DNA of 64,000 nucleotides. It comes from Candidatus Saccharimonadales bacterium. GTDB taxonomy: Bacteria > Patescibacteriota > Saccharimonadia > Saccharimonadales > SZUA-47. The notes below the pieces were generated by a model. It was given only the letters and a program-made list of their open reading frames with translations. It was not told the DNA's origin and searched no databases. Position numbers and translations under genes: made by a program. This document shows, in pieces, positions 24,717 through 30,022 of this stretch (its first letter is position 1; every line of letters begins with the position of its first letter). Where the stretch lies: assembly GCA_041737385.1 (NCBI GenBank), contig JBGSRU010000002.1, positions 141,437 to 205,436 on the forward strand. Reading direction: 5' to 3'.

Positions 24717-25541
24717 ATGTGGTCAGGAACAACATTAACCAATAAATCAGGATCAATAATCGGTGCACATCAAAAAGTCGACCGTGTTGCTCGTAAATTT
24801 CTTGATGATATTACTCATACAGTTGGTAAATTTCCCGCAATAAAGGATATTATCCATTTTGAGGGCAAGAACGGTCCAGACGGTATCAAAAGTAAGAGCC
24901 CAGCCAAGGATGAGCCGTGGCATTTCTATGATCCATTCGATGTAGACGATACTCAGTTACTAGACATTTTAGACGGTCATTACAATGAGCTTGTAAAACA
25001 GCTTAAAAAAGGTTCACCCGAACGTGCTGCTTTTGACGCGGCTTGGTTAGCACATGCGCTGGTTGATGGTTTGACTCCTGCGCATCATTTCCCTTATGAG
25101 GAGCGATTAGTGGAGATAAGAGGCGGAGACAGCTTAGATACGCGCGATACTATTAGAAACAAAATAATCATGCCTGGCGATACGATAAGTAAAAAGCTGA
25201 AAAGTAACTGGCAGATGTACGGTTTTGGCGGGCTAATGAGCATGCATGGCTTCTTTGAGATTGGTATAGGTATATTGCTTGCGCCAATACACATGAAGGC
25301 TGGTAAACCATCTGAAACAGACATTGATGTATTAATTAAAATTGGTTATCAAGAGGTCTTCAAAAGAGCAGCGCGGGAAATAGCTTTGCTTGATATGTAT
25401 GATCGTTTTCACGAAAGTGGTTGGTCGGTAAAATTATCTCGCGACGTCCGAAACCATCTTGGCCCAATAATGGTAAAGACGATTACTATAGTTTGGTATA
25501 GCGCTATGCGTGACGCAGGACTCTTGAAGGGCAAAAAATGA
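24717..25541 (+). CDS. Hypothetical protein, possibly with an all-helical Zn-dependent phospholipase C / S1-P1 nuclease-like fold
   Basis: The His/Asp-rich pattern AWLAHALVDGLTPAHHF resembles the metal-site helix of that superfamily. The function call is weak. It has a 4-nt overlap with rsmD. Confidence 0.65.
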   Translation: MWSGTTLTNKSGSIIGAHQKVDRVARKFLDDITHTVGKFPAIKDIIHFEGKNGPDGIKSKSPAKDEPWHFYDPFDVDDTQLLDILDGHYNELVKQLKKGSPERAAFDAAWLAHALVDGLTPAHHFPYEERLVEIRGGDSLDTRDTIRNKIIMPGDTISKKLKSNWQMYGFGGLMSMHGFFEIGIGILLAPIHMKAGKPSETDIDVLIKIGYQEVFKRAAREIALLDMYDRFHESGWSVKLSRDVRNHLGPIMVKTITIVWYSAMRDAGLLKGKK

Positions 25542-26068
25542 GAATAATTGCAGGTGAGTTTAAAAGTAGGATCATAAAAGATCCAACAGGAAATCGTACT
25601 CATCCTATGAGCGAAAAAGCTCGTGGAGCAATCTTTAATGCACTAGGTGATATCAGTGGGCTGACAGTACTTGATGCGTTTGCTGGCACGGGGGCAATCG
25701 GAATAGAGGCGCTAAGCCGCGGGGCTGAGCGTGTTTACGCCGTTGATGTCGATACAGATGCGTTTGAAGTATTGCAGTGCAACCGCGACCTTATCACCGA
25801 CGAAGAACGCATGTCGGTACATCGGGCAAACGTTCGCTCGTGGTTACGGAACCAAGAAGGCTTAGAGTTTGATCTTGTAATTGCTGATCCGCCGTATGAT
25901 GCTATCGGCATGAACGCAGTTGAAGAGTGTGCAGCTCGGGTAAAAAAAGGTGGTATTTATGTACTTTCAATACCACTCGCAGAGCATATTGAATTTAAAC
26001 GTATGAAAAAGCTTGACGAAAAAATCTACGGTAATGCAAAGATTGTCTTTTATAAGAAGTTAAAATAA
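25538..26068 (+). CDS. rsmD: 16S rRNA (guanine966-N2)-methyltransferase RsmD family
   Basis: VLDAFAGTGAIGIEALSRGA motif I and the DPPY catalytic motif. Confidence 0.85.
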   Translation: MRIIAGEFKSRIIKDPTGNRTHPMSEKARGAIFNALGDISGLTVLDAFAGTGAIGIEALSRGAERVYAVDVDTDAFEVLQCNRDLITDEERMSVHRANVRSWLRNQEGLEFDLVIADPPYDAIGMNAVEECAARVKKGGIYVLSIPLAEHIEFKRMKKLDEKIYGNAKIVFYKKLK

Positions 26069-26099
26069 GTTATAATTACGCAGATCACTACTGTATATC

Positions 26100-26183
26100 G
26101 CGGATGTGGTGGAATGGTAGACACGCTAGTCTTAGGAACTAGTGTCGCAAGACGTGAAGGTTCAAGTCCTTTCATCCGCACCA
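26100..26183 (+). tRNA. tRNA-Leu (anticodon UAG), class II with a long variable arm and a genomically encoded CCA
   Basis: The cloverleaf was folded by hand. Acceptor GCGGATG/CATCCGC, anticodon stem CTAGT/ACTAG with loop CTTAGGA, variable arm GTC-GCAA-GAC, T arm GAAGG-TTCAAGT-CCTTT, then ACCA. Confidence 0.95.
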
Positions 26184-26191
26184 AGAAAAGG

Positions 26192-26213
26192 AGACCCATT
26201 TGGGTCTTTTTTT
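26192..26213 (+). terminator. Intrinsic terminator after tRNA-Leu
   Basis: AGACCCA-TT-TGGGTCT followed by T6. Confidence 0.8.
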
Positions 26214-26252
26214 CTTGGCTGTGGTGAAGGGATTTGAAGCTTCACGCATGAA

Positions 26253-26288
26253 GGTGAAAAATGCCAGTGGCATTTTGCAAGGAAACTT
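26253..26288 (+). repeat. Unit A of a paralogous 36-nt hairpin element (GGTGA-AAAATGCC-AGT-GGCATTTT-GCAAGGAAACTT)
   Basis: An 8-bp stem read directly. It shares GGTGA, the GCCAGTGGC core and TTGCAAGGAnACTT with unit B. Confidence 0.7.
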
Positions 26289-26325
26289 GACTCGATGAAA
26301 ACTCGTTCTCAATCATGTAATTTCG

Positions 26326-26361
26326 GGTGAGATGAGCCAGTGGCTCATTGCAAGGATACTT
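26326..26361 (+). repeat. Unit B of the paralogous 36-nt hairpin element (GGTGA-GATGAGCC-AGT-GGCTCATT-GCAAGGATACTT)
   Basis: Three stem positions differ from unit A on both arms, and pairing is kept in each case (t-a to a-t, a-t to g-c, a-t to t-a). Confidence 0.7.
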
Positions 26362-26426
26362 TCTTCATCAAACTAGTTTGATTGAATGAAATCTCGGGGT
26401 CGCGGAACGTGACCGCAGAATGTGGG

Positions 26427-26441
26427 CAAGTCCTTTCATCC
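26427..26441 (+). repeat. 15-nt direct repeat of the tRNA-Leu T-arm/acceptor 3' segment (CAAGTCCTTTCATCC, identical to 26163-26177)
   Basis: An exact match read directly, 264 nt downstream of the copy inside the tRNA. Confidence 0.75.
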
Positions 26442-26534
26442 CATCCTAAAAACAACCAAAGCTAATAACTATCCTGCTTAACCTTGCAAATAGCTCCTTG
26501 AGTGGTATTGTAGAATCAAATTGAAGAAGATACG

Positions 26535-26786
26535 ATGGAAGTCCCTAATGGCAAAACGGGTTTTGAATTAAGAGAACATGATGTAGTGCAAAAACCAGGT
26601 ATACAAGAGCAAGTGTACGCACTAACTGGTATGGATGAACTAACTTTAGAGCAACAAGTTGCTTACGAAGAAGCGTGGACACAACATATTGAGGCTTTAC
26701 GTGATGCAAATGATGGAAAACTAACCTATTACGATCTAGCCAATCAATACGCTAGGGAGCTGATCCATTCACGCAGCGACGTATAG
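26535..26786 (+). CDS. Hypothetical small acidic protein (83 aa)
   Basis: An ORF only. It has no SD, TM segment or recognisable motif. Confidence 0.5.
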   Translation: MEVPNGKTGFELREHDVVQKPGIQEQVYALTGMDELTLEQQVAYEEAWTQHIEALRDANDGKLTYYDLANQYARELIHSRSDV

Positions 26787-26812
26787 CACTTATTAGTATT
26801 TGGCCTGCTGGT

Positions 26813-27880
26813 ATGGCAGAAGACATCTTTGGTCTGGGAGACGGTTTTAACTATCCGGCTGCTCCATCTGGTCAAAGCAGCAATTTCGTGAGTGATCTTC
26901 CGGAAGCAGTTGACATGTATGACGACGCTATACTCTGGGCACTTGGGCTTGCTGACGAGCACAGAGGATCTGATGCTTGGAAATTATACACGGGTTATAG
27001 ATTTGGTGAGCCAAATCGAGGTTTCGGAAATGAATTCACCGAGAGTGAATCAAAAAAGCTAAATAGTGCAAGTATAAAATATGATTTTAGCAATGGCGGC
27101 GAGACTATAGACCAAGCAAAAATTGATGCTGCAGTTGAATTTGCTACAATTGCTCAAATCGACACATCTTTCATGTATGGTACTGGCGGAGGATCAAACA
27201 GATTCCGTAAACAAGAAGTTGAAGTTTTATTTCAAGGTGTGGAAGACAGACACTCATTTCATAATCCTCATTTGGCAGACGCTATTGTGGACGCAGTCAG
27301 GACGCGGATCATAGACTTGGTTGAACTAGATTTACCAACAATGACCGAAAAAGAAAGAGAAACCGCATTTGAAACGCTTCATACATGGCTAAATACCGCA
27401 TGTAAGAACGACCGTGATAATCGTCAATTTAAGACCCCACGCCAAACAACAAAAGGTATGATAGTTCGGCTTTATAGGCTTTTTGATGAGCACGGCTTTT
27501 ATATGCGCAATAAGGATCAGTATGCTACGTATAAACCAATTCAGCTACATGCACTTGAACTTGTAGGAGTACAAAACAGTGCTCTAAGCATGGAAATCAC
27601 TGAAACTGTAAATATTGACCATAGGAATGCACAAAAAACCTTATCAGCGAATTCTGGATACTTTTACGCAAGAATGAGTGAGCGCCTTCCAGAGGGTCAA
27701 GCGTTGCAAGCAAAATTAGCTGATCTAAACGCTTTACATGAAGCGCTAGTAGTACAGATAGGGGCAAGAAGTGAGGTAGAAACTGCTAATCGTATTCAGC
27801 GAACAAACGAAGAGCGAACTAGAGCACTTGGCGCACTCTCTAAACTAGCTGCTACCGTGACTCCTATCGTTACTGAATAG
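26813..27880 (+). CDS. Hypothetical protein (355 aa), predicted soluble with a helical/coiled C-terminus
   Basis: A long ORF with ordinary-looking codon usage and no motif I can assign. Confidence 0.7.
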   Translation: MAEDIFGLGDGFNYPAAPSGQSSNFVSDLPEAVDMYDDAILWALGLADEHRGSDAWKLYTGYRFGEPNRGFGNEFTESESKKLNSASIKYDFSNGGETIDQAKIDAAVEFATIAQIDTSFMYGTGGGSNRFRKQEVEVLFQGVEDRHSFHNPHLADAIVDAVRTRIIDLVELDLPTMTEKERETAFETLHTWLNTACKNDRDNRQFKTPRQTTKGMIVRLYRLFDEHGFYMRNKDQYATYKPIQLHALELVGVQNSALSMEITETVNIDHRNAQKTLSANSGYFYARMSERLPEGQALQAKLADLNALHEALVVQIGARSEVETANRIQRTNEERTRALGALSKLAATVTPIVTE

Positions 27881-28052
27881 GAGCCGAATTAAGTATTTGT
27901 GTACTGTGGTCATATTTGTGTCTAAACTCATAGACATATAGTAATTTGTCCGTTTGGATGATTGTATAATAATTAAAAAATGAAATCTTATTAATATTTC
28001 TCACTATTCATAAGCAATTTTGAGAATACATACTATATGATATGGTTTTCGT

Positions 28053-29054
28053 ATGAAAGCACCACATCTAGAGCAAATGCTCGCCCCACAAAACGGTGAA
28101 ATTATTGTCGCTACTGATCATTTTGACGTTAGAGAGCCCTTACGTTATATGCTGGCTGCAGCATTGACAGAGCCAAGAGAAGATCTGTCTCCATATGCAC
28201 AAACAACACAGTCCCTCATAAACCGAAGAGTGACCGGACTTTGGGTGCCTCGTAGCCAAATAGATGACTTTAGATTAATTTCGGAGATTACAAATGTTGC
28301 GCAAGGTATGAGCACATCAGCTGAACCCTATACTAGCCCAAGACAACTCAAGGTTATTTATGACACGTCTTCTTCTGGCGGTGTTGATGATATCAACAGA
28401 CACGTAAAGCACATCATCGCTAACCATCCTGCGCCCCAAATGTTATTTACTGTTTCAGTCAATGCAGAAGAAGAAGGAATGAGGTTTCTCACATCTGAAT
28501 TTGCCGAGCATCCTGATGTTGGATTTTTAATTTCAGGCGTCTATCCTGAGCATAGTCCAGATGGCATTATTAGGACGCATGACAAAAATGAGGCAGAGTT
28601 GACCTACAAAGCATCATCTCTTGCAATAAAACACGGGCTTCTCGGTGTTGTTGGATATGGTCAATTAGCCAAATACACAAAGATTGGACAGCCATATATT
28701 TCTCTCGGGGTATGCATCGGAGCGGCAGAGGACTACGTTTCTGAGGTTGGTGATTCAGGGTTTAAAGTAAGAAAACGTATGACGACACCTGAAGAAACTT
28801 ATATATTTGCTAGAAATACTTCCGTCGTGGTCGGAAGGACTTTGTTCCAACAGCAAAGTGGTAACTATATATTCCCTGATAGTGAGGGTATGACTGATCA
28901 AAAATATCTCTCTATGCAACTAATTATAGCTAGAAATTTGGTGAGGTTAATTAGAAGATTGAATGCAATACCTGTGTCACGAAGCATGAATGATGAAGAA
29001 ATAAATGAATTAGTACGCTCTTATGTTGTCCCATTGGATGCAACTGCTGCTTGA
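28053..29054 (+). CDS. Hypothetical protein (333 aa) with a faint resemblance to phosphate-binding TIM barrels of the OMP-decarboxylase/aldolase type
   Basis: IIVATDHFDV near the N-terminus, GVCIGAAED, and SVVVGRTLFQ about 38 aa later mimic the strand-1 Asp and C-terminal phosphate-grip VVGR spacing of that superfamily. The DxKxxD catalytic motif is absent. Confidence 0.7.
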   Translation: MKAPHLEQMLAPQNGEIIVATDHFDVREPLRYMLAAALTEPREDLSPYAQTTQSLINRRVTGLWVPRSQIDDFRLISEITNVAQGMSTSAEPYTSPRQLKVIYDTSSSGGVDDINRHVKHIIANHPAPQMLFTVSVNAEEEGMRFLTSEFAEHPDVGFLISGVYPEHSPDGIIRTHDKNEAELTYKASSLAIKHGLLGVVGYGQLAKYTKIGQPYISLGVCIGAAEDYVSEVGDSGFKVRKRMTTPEETYIFARNTSVVVGRTLFQQQSGNYIFPDSEGMTDQKYLSMQLIIARNLVRLIRRLNAIPVSRSMNDEEINELVRSYVVPLDATAA

Positions 29055-29079
29055 ATTTATTATTAAAGTATGCTATAAT
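29051..29079 (+). promoter_or_regulatory. Near-consensus sigma70-type promoter: TTGAAT, 17 nt, TATAAT
   Basis: The hexamers lie at 29051-29056 and 29074-29079. The -35 box overlaps the stop codon of the upstream gene. Confidence 0.6.
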
Positions 29080-29170
29080 TAAACCATGAGTATGTATAAA
29101 ATATTCGTCACACATATGTAGCCGGAGTCAGTTCTCTTGGTCTAGTTTGTAATTCATGAAATTCTATATA

Positions 29171-29196
29171 GCCGGAGAACAGTCTCCGGCTTTTTT
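29171..29196 (+). terminator. Intrinsic terminator (GCCGGAGA-ACAG-TCTCCGGC plus T6) between the promoter and the downstream operon
   Basis: A perfect 8-bp GC-rich stem and a T6 run read directly. Confidence 0.75.
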
Positions 29197-29236
29197 ATTT
29201 GTAAAAAATTTTAGAATAAGAAATGGAAATATCAAA

Positions 29237-30022
29237 ATGAGTGATTATACTAGTAGAGAAGCTGCTTTTGAGCAAGCTAGTGAGAGACTACAAAACCAAG
29301 AGGTCCAAGAGAGGGCTGATATATATCTAGGAGGTGATTGGCCTCCCGGCTTTGAGGGTACTGATAGTCCAAAGGCAGTTTATGCACCGTACCTTGCAAC
29401 AGGATCAGAAACAGAGACAGAGTTTGTATTAGACGCTAAAAAAGGAGGCTTTGAACCCGTTGTAGCAACCTATTTACGCACTGAATTTGTGACCGCAAAC
29501 GGCGCAATAGTTGACTGTTACAGACCTCCGCTTAAACTTCCTAATGGTCAACAGCAAAGGAAATGGATTGTTCCTGAGTCTGATAGGATCGGTGAGCTGG
29601 GGCAAGCCAATACTTTTTATGAAGGAGTTAATATACTAGCATTTTGGTCTGGAGTAAGAACTTTCGCCTCAAATAATGCAGGTATTAATCAGTTACCAGA
29701 AACAGTAGATTTCAGTGAATGGTACAAAAGACAAGCTATAAGATTTGGCTGGAATGAAGTTGAAAGGTCAAAATCAGGCTACTACTACAATGCTTTAATG
29801 GGGCTATATGCTTCTGGCCGAGCTGTTTTATATGACACGCCTCCAACAGAGTTTTATAATCGAATAATGAAACCTGCAGTACAGTTAGCAGAAATTGCAA
29901 TCGGAGCAAAACCAATACTGACAAATATCCTACAAGGTAAAAAGCGAGACTGGGTAGATTTAGCAGCATTGAACTCCGAACAAGTACTCTCCTTACAAGA
30001 AATAGGAAAAATAAATGCGTAA
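29237..30022 (+). CDS. Hypothetical protein (261 aa from this ATG), first gene of an overlapping three-gene unit
   Basis: The ORF-track start at 29156 would place the terminator hairpin inside the coding sequence, so ATG 29237 is preferred. No family is recognisable. Its end overlaps the next gene by 8 nt. Confidence 0.7.
   Translation: MSDYTSREAAFEQASERLQNQEVQERADIYLGGDWPPGFEGTDSPKAVYAPYLATGSETETEFVLDAKKGGFEPVVATYLRTEFVTANGAIVDCYRPPLKLPNGQQQRKWIVPESDRIGELGQANTFYEGVNILAFWSGVRTFASNNAGINQLPETVDFSEWYKRQAIRFGWNEVERSKSGYYYNALMGLYASGRAVLYDTPPTEFYNRIMKPAVQLAEIAIGAKPILTNILQGKKRDWVDLAALNSEQVLSLQEIGKINA

Follow-up and report, generated by a model that had tools for sequence, protein, structure and literature searches.

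Evidence for a decaying nested pair of structured repeat copies beside a tRNA-Leu gene in a Saccharibacteria genome, and for a family of such repeats in tRNA gene fragments

The DNA analyzed here (the window) is a 64,000-nt chromosomal stretch of a Saccharibacteria (TM7) genome (Candidatus Saccharimonadales bacterium; GenBank assembly GCA_041737385.1, contig JBGSRU010000002.1, positions 141,437 to 205,436). A hairpin-rich region lies downstream of its tRNA-Leu(TAG) gene, and this region is best interpreted as a decaying pair in which one copy of a small, non-coding structured repeat (hereafter called the module) is nested in another. The module is about 89 nt long, starts with GUGAG, and contains three hairpins (P1, P2, and P3), between which lie the conserved linkers GCAAGG and UUUCGGGG. 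When the window was scanned with filters off using a covariance model derived from unrelated genomes (R1), two copies were identified, here designated modules A and B, and no other credible match was found in the 64 kb. The components are as follows.

26254–26326, plus strand: module A, with P1, a degraded P2, and a P3 that is split by module B (R1 score 47.6 bits, E = 6.6e-9)
26327–26414, plus strand: module B, complete (R1 score 83.1 bits, E = 8.5e-17, model positions 1–89)
26415–26427, plus strand: 3′ half of the P3 of module A, GCAGAATGTGGGC (13 nt), matching the P3 variant of loci L207 and L188

The match to module A lacks 17 model positions of R1, which belong to P3, and the 5′ strand of this hairpin is interrupted after CGG-GT by module B. 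In L207 and L188 the same P3 variant is intact (GGGCCCGCAGAATGTGGGC|AAGTCC). The 13 nt that follow module B correspond to the 3′ half of this variant, indicating that module B sits within the P3 of module A. The last C of these 13 nt is also C56 of the T-loop in which module A lies. The nesting site found in the window is also used in L077/L078, L131, and L168.

The original prediction, made from the sequence of the window, had described this region as a single hairpin-dense non-coding stretch with two paralogous 36-nt units; it is instead composed of two nested copies of one module. Unit A (26253–26288) and unit B (26326–26361) are both present as described, are 78% identical in register, and represent the P1 hairpins of modules A and B, respectively. 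Their shared core, GCCAGTGGCNNNTTGCAAGGA, occurs at only two sites in the 64 kb compared with 0.02 expected, so the resemblance exceeds chance. The reported compensatory changes were also recovered, with three P1 positions that differ on both arms while pairing is kept (AAAATGCC/GGCATTTT in A and GATGAGCC/GGCTCATT in B). Among the other predicted stems, all of which exist, the palindrome ATCAAAC-TA-GTTTGAT (26367–26382) is the apex of P2 in module B, the hairpin GGTCGCG-GAA-CGTGACC (26398–26414) is its P3, and the hairpin formed by GTGAAG (26224–26229) and CTTCAC (26240–26245) belongs to an inverted T-arm (26222–26246) that lies outside of the modules. One claim that did not hold is that no open reading frame (ORF) exceeds about 16 codons, because mechanical ORFs of 32, 36, and 46 amino acids with TTG starts overlap the region. 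A coding interpretation of these ORFs was dropped, given their TTG starts, their overlap with covarying stems, and the lack of a gene-like candidate among them. The 351-nt region folds better than shuffled sequences on the plus strand (z = −3.3) but not clearly so on the minus strand (z = −1.7).

The fold of the module is under selection on the tRNA-sense strand. For an alignment of 79 short-type modules, the structure obtained by RNAalifold has four helices (P1, P2a, P2b, and P3) with 31 pairs, 20 of which show double compensatory changes. Standard pairs occupy 97.6% of the paired cells compared with 78.2% in shuffled alignments (none of 500 shuffles reached the observed value) and double-change cells number 447 compared with 105 in the shuffles, although these statistics are inflated for the P1 core and P3 because the search pattern fixed the former and sequence extraction demanded a perfect hairpin for the latter. 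Controls in which the structure was slid along the alignment gave 27–43% pairing. P2a and P2b, which were not constrained by the extraction, have 94.5 and 95.4% pairing, respectively, and all of their 14 pairs covary. The free positions of P1 covary as well, with 48 double changes at columns 8–22. These patterns agree with the predicted selection on structure rather than on sequence. A palindromic site bound by a protein as duplex DNA, which had been offered as one form of such selection, is unlikely. The alignment has approximately 127 G-U cells compared with approximately 10 A-C cells (for example, G-U in 70 of the 79 sequences at columns 82–91), and this excess indicates that the fold belongs to the tRNA-sense strand only, either as RNA or as that DNA strand in single-stranded form.

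The module corresponds to no Rfam family, and no description of it was found in full-text literature searching. The earlier statement that the region is not recognizable as tmRNA, RNase P, SRP or 6S RNA, or a known riboswitch was borne out by the Rfam search that had been proposed with it, in which only tRNA reached the threshold in the window. With E values up to 10, positions 25900–26800 gave weak, sub-threshold matches to microRNA-type families on the palindrome formed by the tRNA and its terminator. For the canonical copies in L046, L064, and L036, a search against Rfam 15 returned only tRNA and one chance-level match to a long non-coding RNA far from the module.

Related copies were collected in several ways. 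From 74 metagenome loci fetched via the RsmD protein, together with syntenic contigs of close homologues, BLAST comparisons revealed unit-like sequences and a GGTCGCGGAACGTGACC hairpin beside tRNA-Leu(TAG), even where RsmD is only about 45% identical. In L046, for example, the module lies in the T-loop of a second, partial copy of tRNA-Leu (GAAGG|TGAGAAGTGCCTGTGGCACTTCGCAAGGAAACC...GGGGTCGCGGAACGTGAC|CAAGTCC). A scan of GTDB species genomes with a P1 pattern gave at least 120 stretches, and nearly all of the matches listed are in metagenome-assembled genomes (MAGs) labelled Saccharibacteria, Saccharimonadales, or Patescibacteria. Covariance-model searches gave 121 and 43 matches, and more than 160 copies were recovered from public genomes. 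A common dispersed repeat with no conserved context had been named as the observation that would count against selection on the structure. The unit is indeed dispersed, but its context is conserved, being made up of tRNA gene fragments beside intact tRNA genes. The flanks of the copies are fragments of many different tRNAs, covering about 16 amino acid types (Lys, Leu, Gln, Gly, Pro, Val, Ser, Arg, Met, Trp, His, Ala, Tyr, Glu, Ile, and Phe), and almost every copy has an intact tRNA on the same strand, located approximately 58–100 nt upstream or 123–180 nt downstream (ARAGORN).

Two arrangements were distinguished among the copies that have a tRNA within 110 nt, with 37 copies of type I and 67 of type II. 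In type I, an intact 5′ part of the tRNA is followed by the module, the 3′ strand of the T-stem, a promoter-like spacer, and the intact tRNA itself. A promoter-like site scoring at least 9 of 12 is present in 17 of the 37 type I spacers compared with 4% of shuffled sequences, and the TATAAT lies 8–14 nt before position +1 of the intact tRNA. In type II, the intact tRNA comes first and is followed by a terminator, an inverted copy of the T-arm, a short piece of the variable region and the 5′ strand of the T-stem, the module, and then an intact 3′ part of the tRNA, ending in CCA. A run of T is found in 59 of the 67 type II spacers, and a consensus scan found no convincing promoter for the type II copies. 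An inverted copy of the variable region and T-arm of the neighbouring tRNA is present in 84% of the 67 type II loci (median score 13 compared with 5 in shuffles), such that the layout is direct, inverted, direct, with the first junction at the terminator loop. In some type II loci (L096, L116, and L114) the direct repeat may extend from the T-loop through the terminator, and repeats of tRNA segments of 21–68 nt were found in L005, L096, L114, and L116.

The window locus has the type II arrangement. From 5′ to 3′, the order is tRNA-Leu(TAG), terminator, mirror copy of the tRNA 3′ half, 5′ strand of the T-stem with T54, module A, module B, the remainder of the P3 of module A, the rest of the T-loop, the 3′ strand of the T-stem, and a remnant of the acceptor. 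The features that surround the modules are listed below.

26049–26076, plus strand: promoter-like site TTTATA-16-TATAAT upstream of tRNA-Leu (10 of 12 in a consensus scan; a pattern match only)
26100–26183, plus strand: intact tRNA-Leu(TAG) (ARAGORN; 60.6 bits with the Rfam tRNA model)
26181–26218, plus strand: terminator hairpin, GAGACCCA/TGGGTCT, with a T run after it (an inverted repeat, read from the sequence)
26201–26246, plus strand: mirror (reverse-complement) copy of the tRNA 3′ half (46-nt arms, 78% complementary, centred on the terminator loop)
26248–26255, plus strand: direct copy of the 5′ strand of the T-stem with T54, ATGAAGGT (compare GTGAAGGT of the tRNA at 26154–26161)
26427–26446, plus strand: decayed 3′ part of tRNA-Leu as a direct repeat, with the rest of the T-loop, the 3′ strand of the T-stem, and a degenerate 3′ strand of the acceptor (CAAGTCCTTTCATCCCATCC)

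The tRNA-Leu(TAG) gene is the only tRNA gene of the window according to both ARAGORN and Rfam. The stem of its terminator reaches into the CCA end of the tRNA, and the terminator loop is the center of the long inverted repeat; the terminator scan called this hairpin on the minus strand only. The 8-nt ATGAAGGT directly precedes unit A and thus represents the 5′ flank of module A. Alignment to the intact tRNA placed the junction behind tRNA position 62 (GTGAAGGT^TCAAGT). Downstream of the modules, positions 26399–26452 repeat the variable arm and T-loop, the 3′ strand of the T-stem, and the 3′ end of the acceptor, and an exact 15-mer (CAAGTCCTTTCATCC) occurs at 26163 and 26427 only. The 3′ part of tRNA-Leu(TAG) is thus present as a second, decayed copy, and module A is lodged in the T-loop of this copy. 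Inspection by eye of the window, L005, L034, and L116 revealed no acceptor-stem pairing of the inverted copy with the 3′ fragment, such as would produce a tRNA-like molecule.

The junctions were mapped by alignment of each interrupted copy to its intact neighbour. All T-loop insertions are located after G53-T54 (GGT^TCAAGT or GGT^TCGAAT), and the last one or two nucleotides of P3 in these copies serve as T-loop positions 55–56. At all other sites the module likewise follows a G or a run of G. These sites were found in the D-loop or D-stem of six tRNA types (Gln, Glu, Gly, Pro, Phe, and Ser), in the tRNA-Pro(GGG) anticodon loop, and in the tRNA-Val variable loop, and copies also sit after a G or GGT within the P3 of another copy. 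The junctions lose 0–3 nt of the tRNA and have no target-site duplication. The module was found in only 12 of the 74 RsmD-anchored loci, and many of these loci have a bare tRNA-Leu. Within a genome, modules at different tRNAs or loops may have 80–93% identity, compared with a 95th percentile of 78% between genomes. Examples include the modules in the T-loop of tRNA-His and the D-arm of tRNA-Pro in L147 (93%), L152/L110 (86%), and L154/L193 (84%). For 13 of the 58 modules with a same-genome partner, the nearest neighbour is in the same genome, a count that includes tandem copies at one tRNA. Tandem module arrays were found in L114, and in L147 modules are present at all three tRNAs in 8 kb, including a tRNA-Pro that lies between an upstream D-arm copy and a downstream T-loop copy. 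No clean pair of filled and empty sites was found among the window's closest relatives, in which the tRNA-Leu locus has been rearranged or contains only degenerate modules.

Several variants of the element and its hosts were observed. A longer subfamily (GCAAGGCCGGAAGCC...), which has an extra hairpin within P3, includes 27 copies (e.g., L063:3469–3600 and L064:1146–1270) and is often located in D-loops. In L063, a long-type module in the D-loop and a short-type module in the T-loop are found in the same partial copy of tRNA-Leu. A second T-loop insert of about 27 nt (a TAGCC.G.GCGCAAGCC....GCTG hairpin) replaces the T-loop in L037:3719, L038:3368, and L202:3096; the hosts of this insert are partial copies of tRNA-Leu and one tRNA-Pro(GGG) gene. 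The latter (L202:2959–3140) is full-length, has complementary acceptor strands, and carries a module in the anticodon loop in addition to the 27-nt insert, with no intact copy of tRNA-Pro(GGG) within 8 kb. Its contig is labelled Burkholderiaceae, has a GC content of 44%, and is probably misbinned. Modules were also found in MAGs labelled Parcubacteria, Woesebacteria, and Calothrix (L099, L103, L164, L153, and L111), which means that the family extends outside Saccharibacteria or that these contigs carry wrong labels or were misbinned. In L077 (4553–5275), the intact gene is preceded by three tandem interrupted copies of tRNA-Leu, one of which is obscured by an N run. In two of these copies the acceptor strand is GCGGATG, as in the window (the third is masked at this position), compared with GCGCGAG/CTCGCGC in the intact tRNA. 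This difference reflects either replacement of the acceptor stem or its evolution after formation of the copies.

Based on these comparisons, the element is probably a non-autonomous structured repeat, distributed among tRNA genes by copying, a reading that we hold with moderate confidence. The window copy, in which module A has lost an intact P3 and the acceptor has decayed, looks like a relic of this process. The copying factor would be encoded elsewhere and would recognize the folded single strand, either as RNA or as the lagging-strand template DNA, together with a short G-rich target. Only those events that leave or regenerate an intact tRNA would survive, and such survival would explain the partial duplications and their direct, inverted, direct layout.

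In addition to the inflation of some pairing statistics described above, several findings weigh against copying of this kind. No transposase, integrase, or reverse transcriptase was found, and the case for mobility comes from comparative patterns. When the 885 ORFs within 3.5 kb of 127 copies were clustered, only scattered housekeeping families were obtained and no protein family was recurrent within this distance. In particular, no Y1 HUH transposase (RAYT/TnpA) was found among the recurrent neighbours, a result that concerns these neighbouring ORFs. The origin of the duplications through survival of rare rescue events is a conjecture. Most within-genome pairs (median identity 0.66) are no more alike than between-genome pairs (0.62), indicating that copying must be rare or old. 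Orthologous copies also persist across species-level genomes, and such long persistence is unexpected for junk in deletion-biased genomes of about 1 Mb. For seven orthologous D-arm copies at tRNA-Gly(GCC), the tRNA 5′ fragment and a modified anticodon hairpin (CCTTGCCAGGCCAAGG) are conserved at 92 and 91%, respectively, whereas the next 30 nt, which form the spacer, are randomized (60%). This conservation suggests either a function of the chimeric RNA or a mobile unit that includes the flanks.

The persistence of these flanks bears on the possibility, which we regard as credible but not likely, that the module and the adjoining 5′ or 3′ tRNA fragment form a conserved functional non-coding RNA transcribed from tRNA promoters. 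Such a transcript might act as a decoy, a sponge, or a processing or regulatory RNA that uses features of the T-arm and acceptor, and the many copies would then be due to a role at every tRNA locus and not to selfish spread. The strand-specific fold, which is always co-oriented with the tRNA, and the position of type I copies directly behind the native tRNA promoter are in line with this possibility. In addition, the pseudo-tRNA flanks conserved in the seven genomes share their own differences from the intact tRNA. The T-stem that closes the module is intact in 28 of the 36 copies with a readable register, and in L034 and L036 it has changed to GGAGG/CCTCT and is still paired. However, nested copies destroy the P3 of the copy that hosts them, presence varies among related genomes, degenerate copies are common, and the insertion site may be the T-loop, D-arm, anticodon loop, or variable loop. 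A single role at the RNA level is hard to picture when the retained tRNA part is 5′ in type I and 3′ in type II, and the type II copies are located behind a terminator with no clear promoter. A related and more tentative idea, which we consider rather unlikely, joins mobility and function. The module would be a mobile class of structured RNA, ribozyme-like or guide-like, that inserts itself at G-rich GGU sites in exposed tRNA loops or in a tRNA-like single-stranded fold of the gene, followed by fixation of the products as transcribed and selected chimeric genes of tRNA fragment and module.

The direct repeats of the tRNA 3′ part may also be considered as attachment-site scars. The T-loop is a classic crossover site of integrases that target tRNA genes. 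The repeats would represent attL and attR of islands formed by tyrosine integrases at the T-loop, and the module would be a conserved arm next to attP. The repeats flank the unit, sometimes together with the terminator (15 nt are exact in the window), and islets of 1.4–2.7 kb lie between module repeats in L127, L159, L204, L108, and L152. Moreover, four ORFan genes follow the window element, one of them without a homologue among 5.8 billion proteins. Nevertheless, this explanation is improbable. No integrase was found in or near any copy examined, and Pfam and PHROG scans of the islet ORFs, which encode an S24 LexA-like repressor, an HNH endonuclease (at one locus), hydrolases, and ORFans, found no recombinase. 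A search for the P3 pattern in viral contigs gave eight matches, all by chance in high-GC coding DNA, and in BLAST searches with the window region phage records matched only the tRNA and plasmid records gave nothing. Most units are only about 170–250 nt. One module sequence at about 16 tRNA types and in four loops does not resemble the arm sites of diverged integrases, and covariation with G-U pairs is the mark of a single-strand fold rather than of duplex protein-binding sites. Removal of the module as an intron from the transcript, by itself or by a protein to give a working tRNA, is very improbable. The sites are tRNA loops, similar sequences are present in many tRNAs as in the transposition of introns in Thermoproteales (PMC4033280), and the full-length tRNA-Pro(GGG) of L202 with its anticodon-loop module would fit such a gene. 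However, in silico removal of the module restored an ARAGORN tRNA call in only 3 of 140 copies, indicating that the interrupted copies are not spliced genes. In essentially every copy, one half of the tRNA has decayed or is absent and an intact tRNA lies beside it, and the junctions lack 0–3 nt. No group I or II intron model matched the window or canonical copies in Rfam, and the L202 gene also has the 27-nt insert in place of its T-loop. For the window copy, in which the tRNA 5′ part is cut to 8 nt and the 3′ strand of the acceptor is degenerate, the intron explanation is largely refuted.

Two of the islets contain genes of note. The 2.5-kb islet in L127 (2823–5795) encodes an S24 LexA/CI-like repressor and three unknown ORFs without an integrase, and is bounded by two copies of the module with the tRNA-Lys 3′ part that are 89% identical. 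In L152 (1010–1462), an HNH endonuclease gene (PHROG 2255, E = 1.8e-31) is located between two modules, an arrangement seen at this locus only.

Compared with known systems, the module shares features with repetitive extragenic palindromic (REP) sequences and REPINs, which a RAYT transposase of the Y1 HUH class, encoded by a single-copy gene, mobilizes in trans, and with the palindrome-associated elements of the IS200/IS605 family. These are also short, non-coding, and non-autonomous, with hairpins conserved over sequence, and they are acted on as one strand, as is suggested for the module by its strand-specific fold. Insertion of the IS200/IS605 elements takes place 3′ of a short motif and produces no target duplication, with the enzyme encoded elsewhere; similarly, the module follows GGT or a G run and has no duplication. 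In contrast to these elements, the module has three hairpins with conserved linkers and is found only in tRNA gene fragments with an intact tRNA and partial duplications. It also differs from miniature inverted-repeat transposable elements by having no target duplication of fixed length and ends (GTGAG.../...GTGAC) that do not form a convincing inverted repeat. The tRNA islands of tyrosine integrases resemble the module loci in having a partial copy of the tRNA 3′ part from the T-loop, an intact tRNA, and occasional islets. However, the module units are about 200 nt and lack an integrase, occupy D-arm, anticodon-loop, and variable-loop sites as well, carry covarying cargo, and in some cases include the tRNA 5′ part with a promoter-like site. 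Tandem inversion duplications in Salmonella, studied by the Roth laboratory, reportedly arise by snap-back at quasi-palindromes. The type II loci share with these the direct, inverted, direct order of the tRNA 3′ half, with junctions at the terminator loop and near the variable region, but the segments are only 60–70 nt, recur at many tRNAs, and always have the module in the third copy.

Among Archaea, transposed non-canonical tRNA introns are known from Thermoproteales (Fujishima et al., 2010, cited in PMC4033280), and a model for the disruption of tRNA genes has been proposed (Sugahara et al., 2012; PMC3293823). Like the module, these cases involve related short inserts in the D-, anticodon-, variable-, and T-loops of many tRNAs in one lineage, and in both cases tRNA fragments adjoin mobile DNA. 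The archaeal interrupted genes, however, are complete and are spliced by a protein endonuclease, whereas the module copies are incomplete, have an intact gene beside them, and are found in a bacterial host. Within Patescibacteria, a survey of tRNA introns based on covariance models found group I introns in the anticodon loop only (PMC13011429). These introns likewise represent structured RNAs that interrupt tRNA genes in the same phylum, but they are self-splicing, whereas the module, with a length of about 89 nt, has no match among intron models at E values up to 10 and leaves no restorable tRNA.

The genes of the window include those for RecG, a conserved 274-amino acid protein, RsmD, HisRS, and trigger factor, with others further downstream. 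The source label of the homologues of the window RsmD is Candidatus Saccharibacteria. Two long ORFs correspond in size to rpoB and rpoC. The 274-amino acid protein (24717–25541) has no Pfam domain and is syntenic between RecG and RsmD across the Saccharibacteria relatives examined. Directly 3′ of the element, positions 26535–30022 contain four consecutive genes (83, 355, 333, and 288 amino acids) without a Pfam or PHROG match, of which the 355-amino acid protein is the one that has no homologue but itself. Between RsmD and HisRS, the relatives have genes other than those of the window, and 26535–30022 looks like a strain-specific islet beside the tRNA. In addition, two Logan contigs (L001 and L002) from the source sample of the window (SRR28170464) end in the tRNA at about 26144 and resume exactly at 26327, the first base of module B, a pattern consistent with assembly-graph breaks caused by repeats or by population variants.

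According to a review, bacterial tRNA genes are structurally uniform, with group I and II introns beside the anticodon as the exceptions (PMC4033280). The finding reported here is a lineage-wide element in the T-, D-, anticodon-, and variable-loops of duplicated tRNA fragments in the ultra-small genomes of Saccharibacteria. It accounts for breaks in assemblies and for apparent tRNA pseudogenes among MAGs of Saccharibacteria and marks sites where small strain-specific gene islets gather, and the covariance model R1 can be used for its annotation. If the element is mobile, it would represent a tRNA-specific repeat family that spares its essential target in an unusual way. If it is a mobile structured RNA, it would be a bacterial counterpart of the archaeal tRNA intron transposition that needs no element-encoded protein. 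If it is instead functional, it would represent an unrecognized class of tRNA-linked RNAs in a poorly understood phylum.

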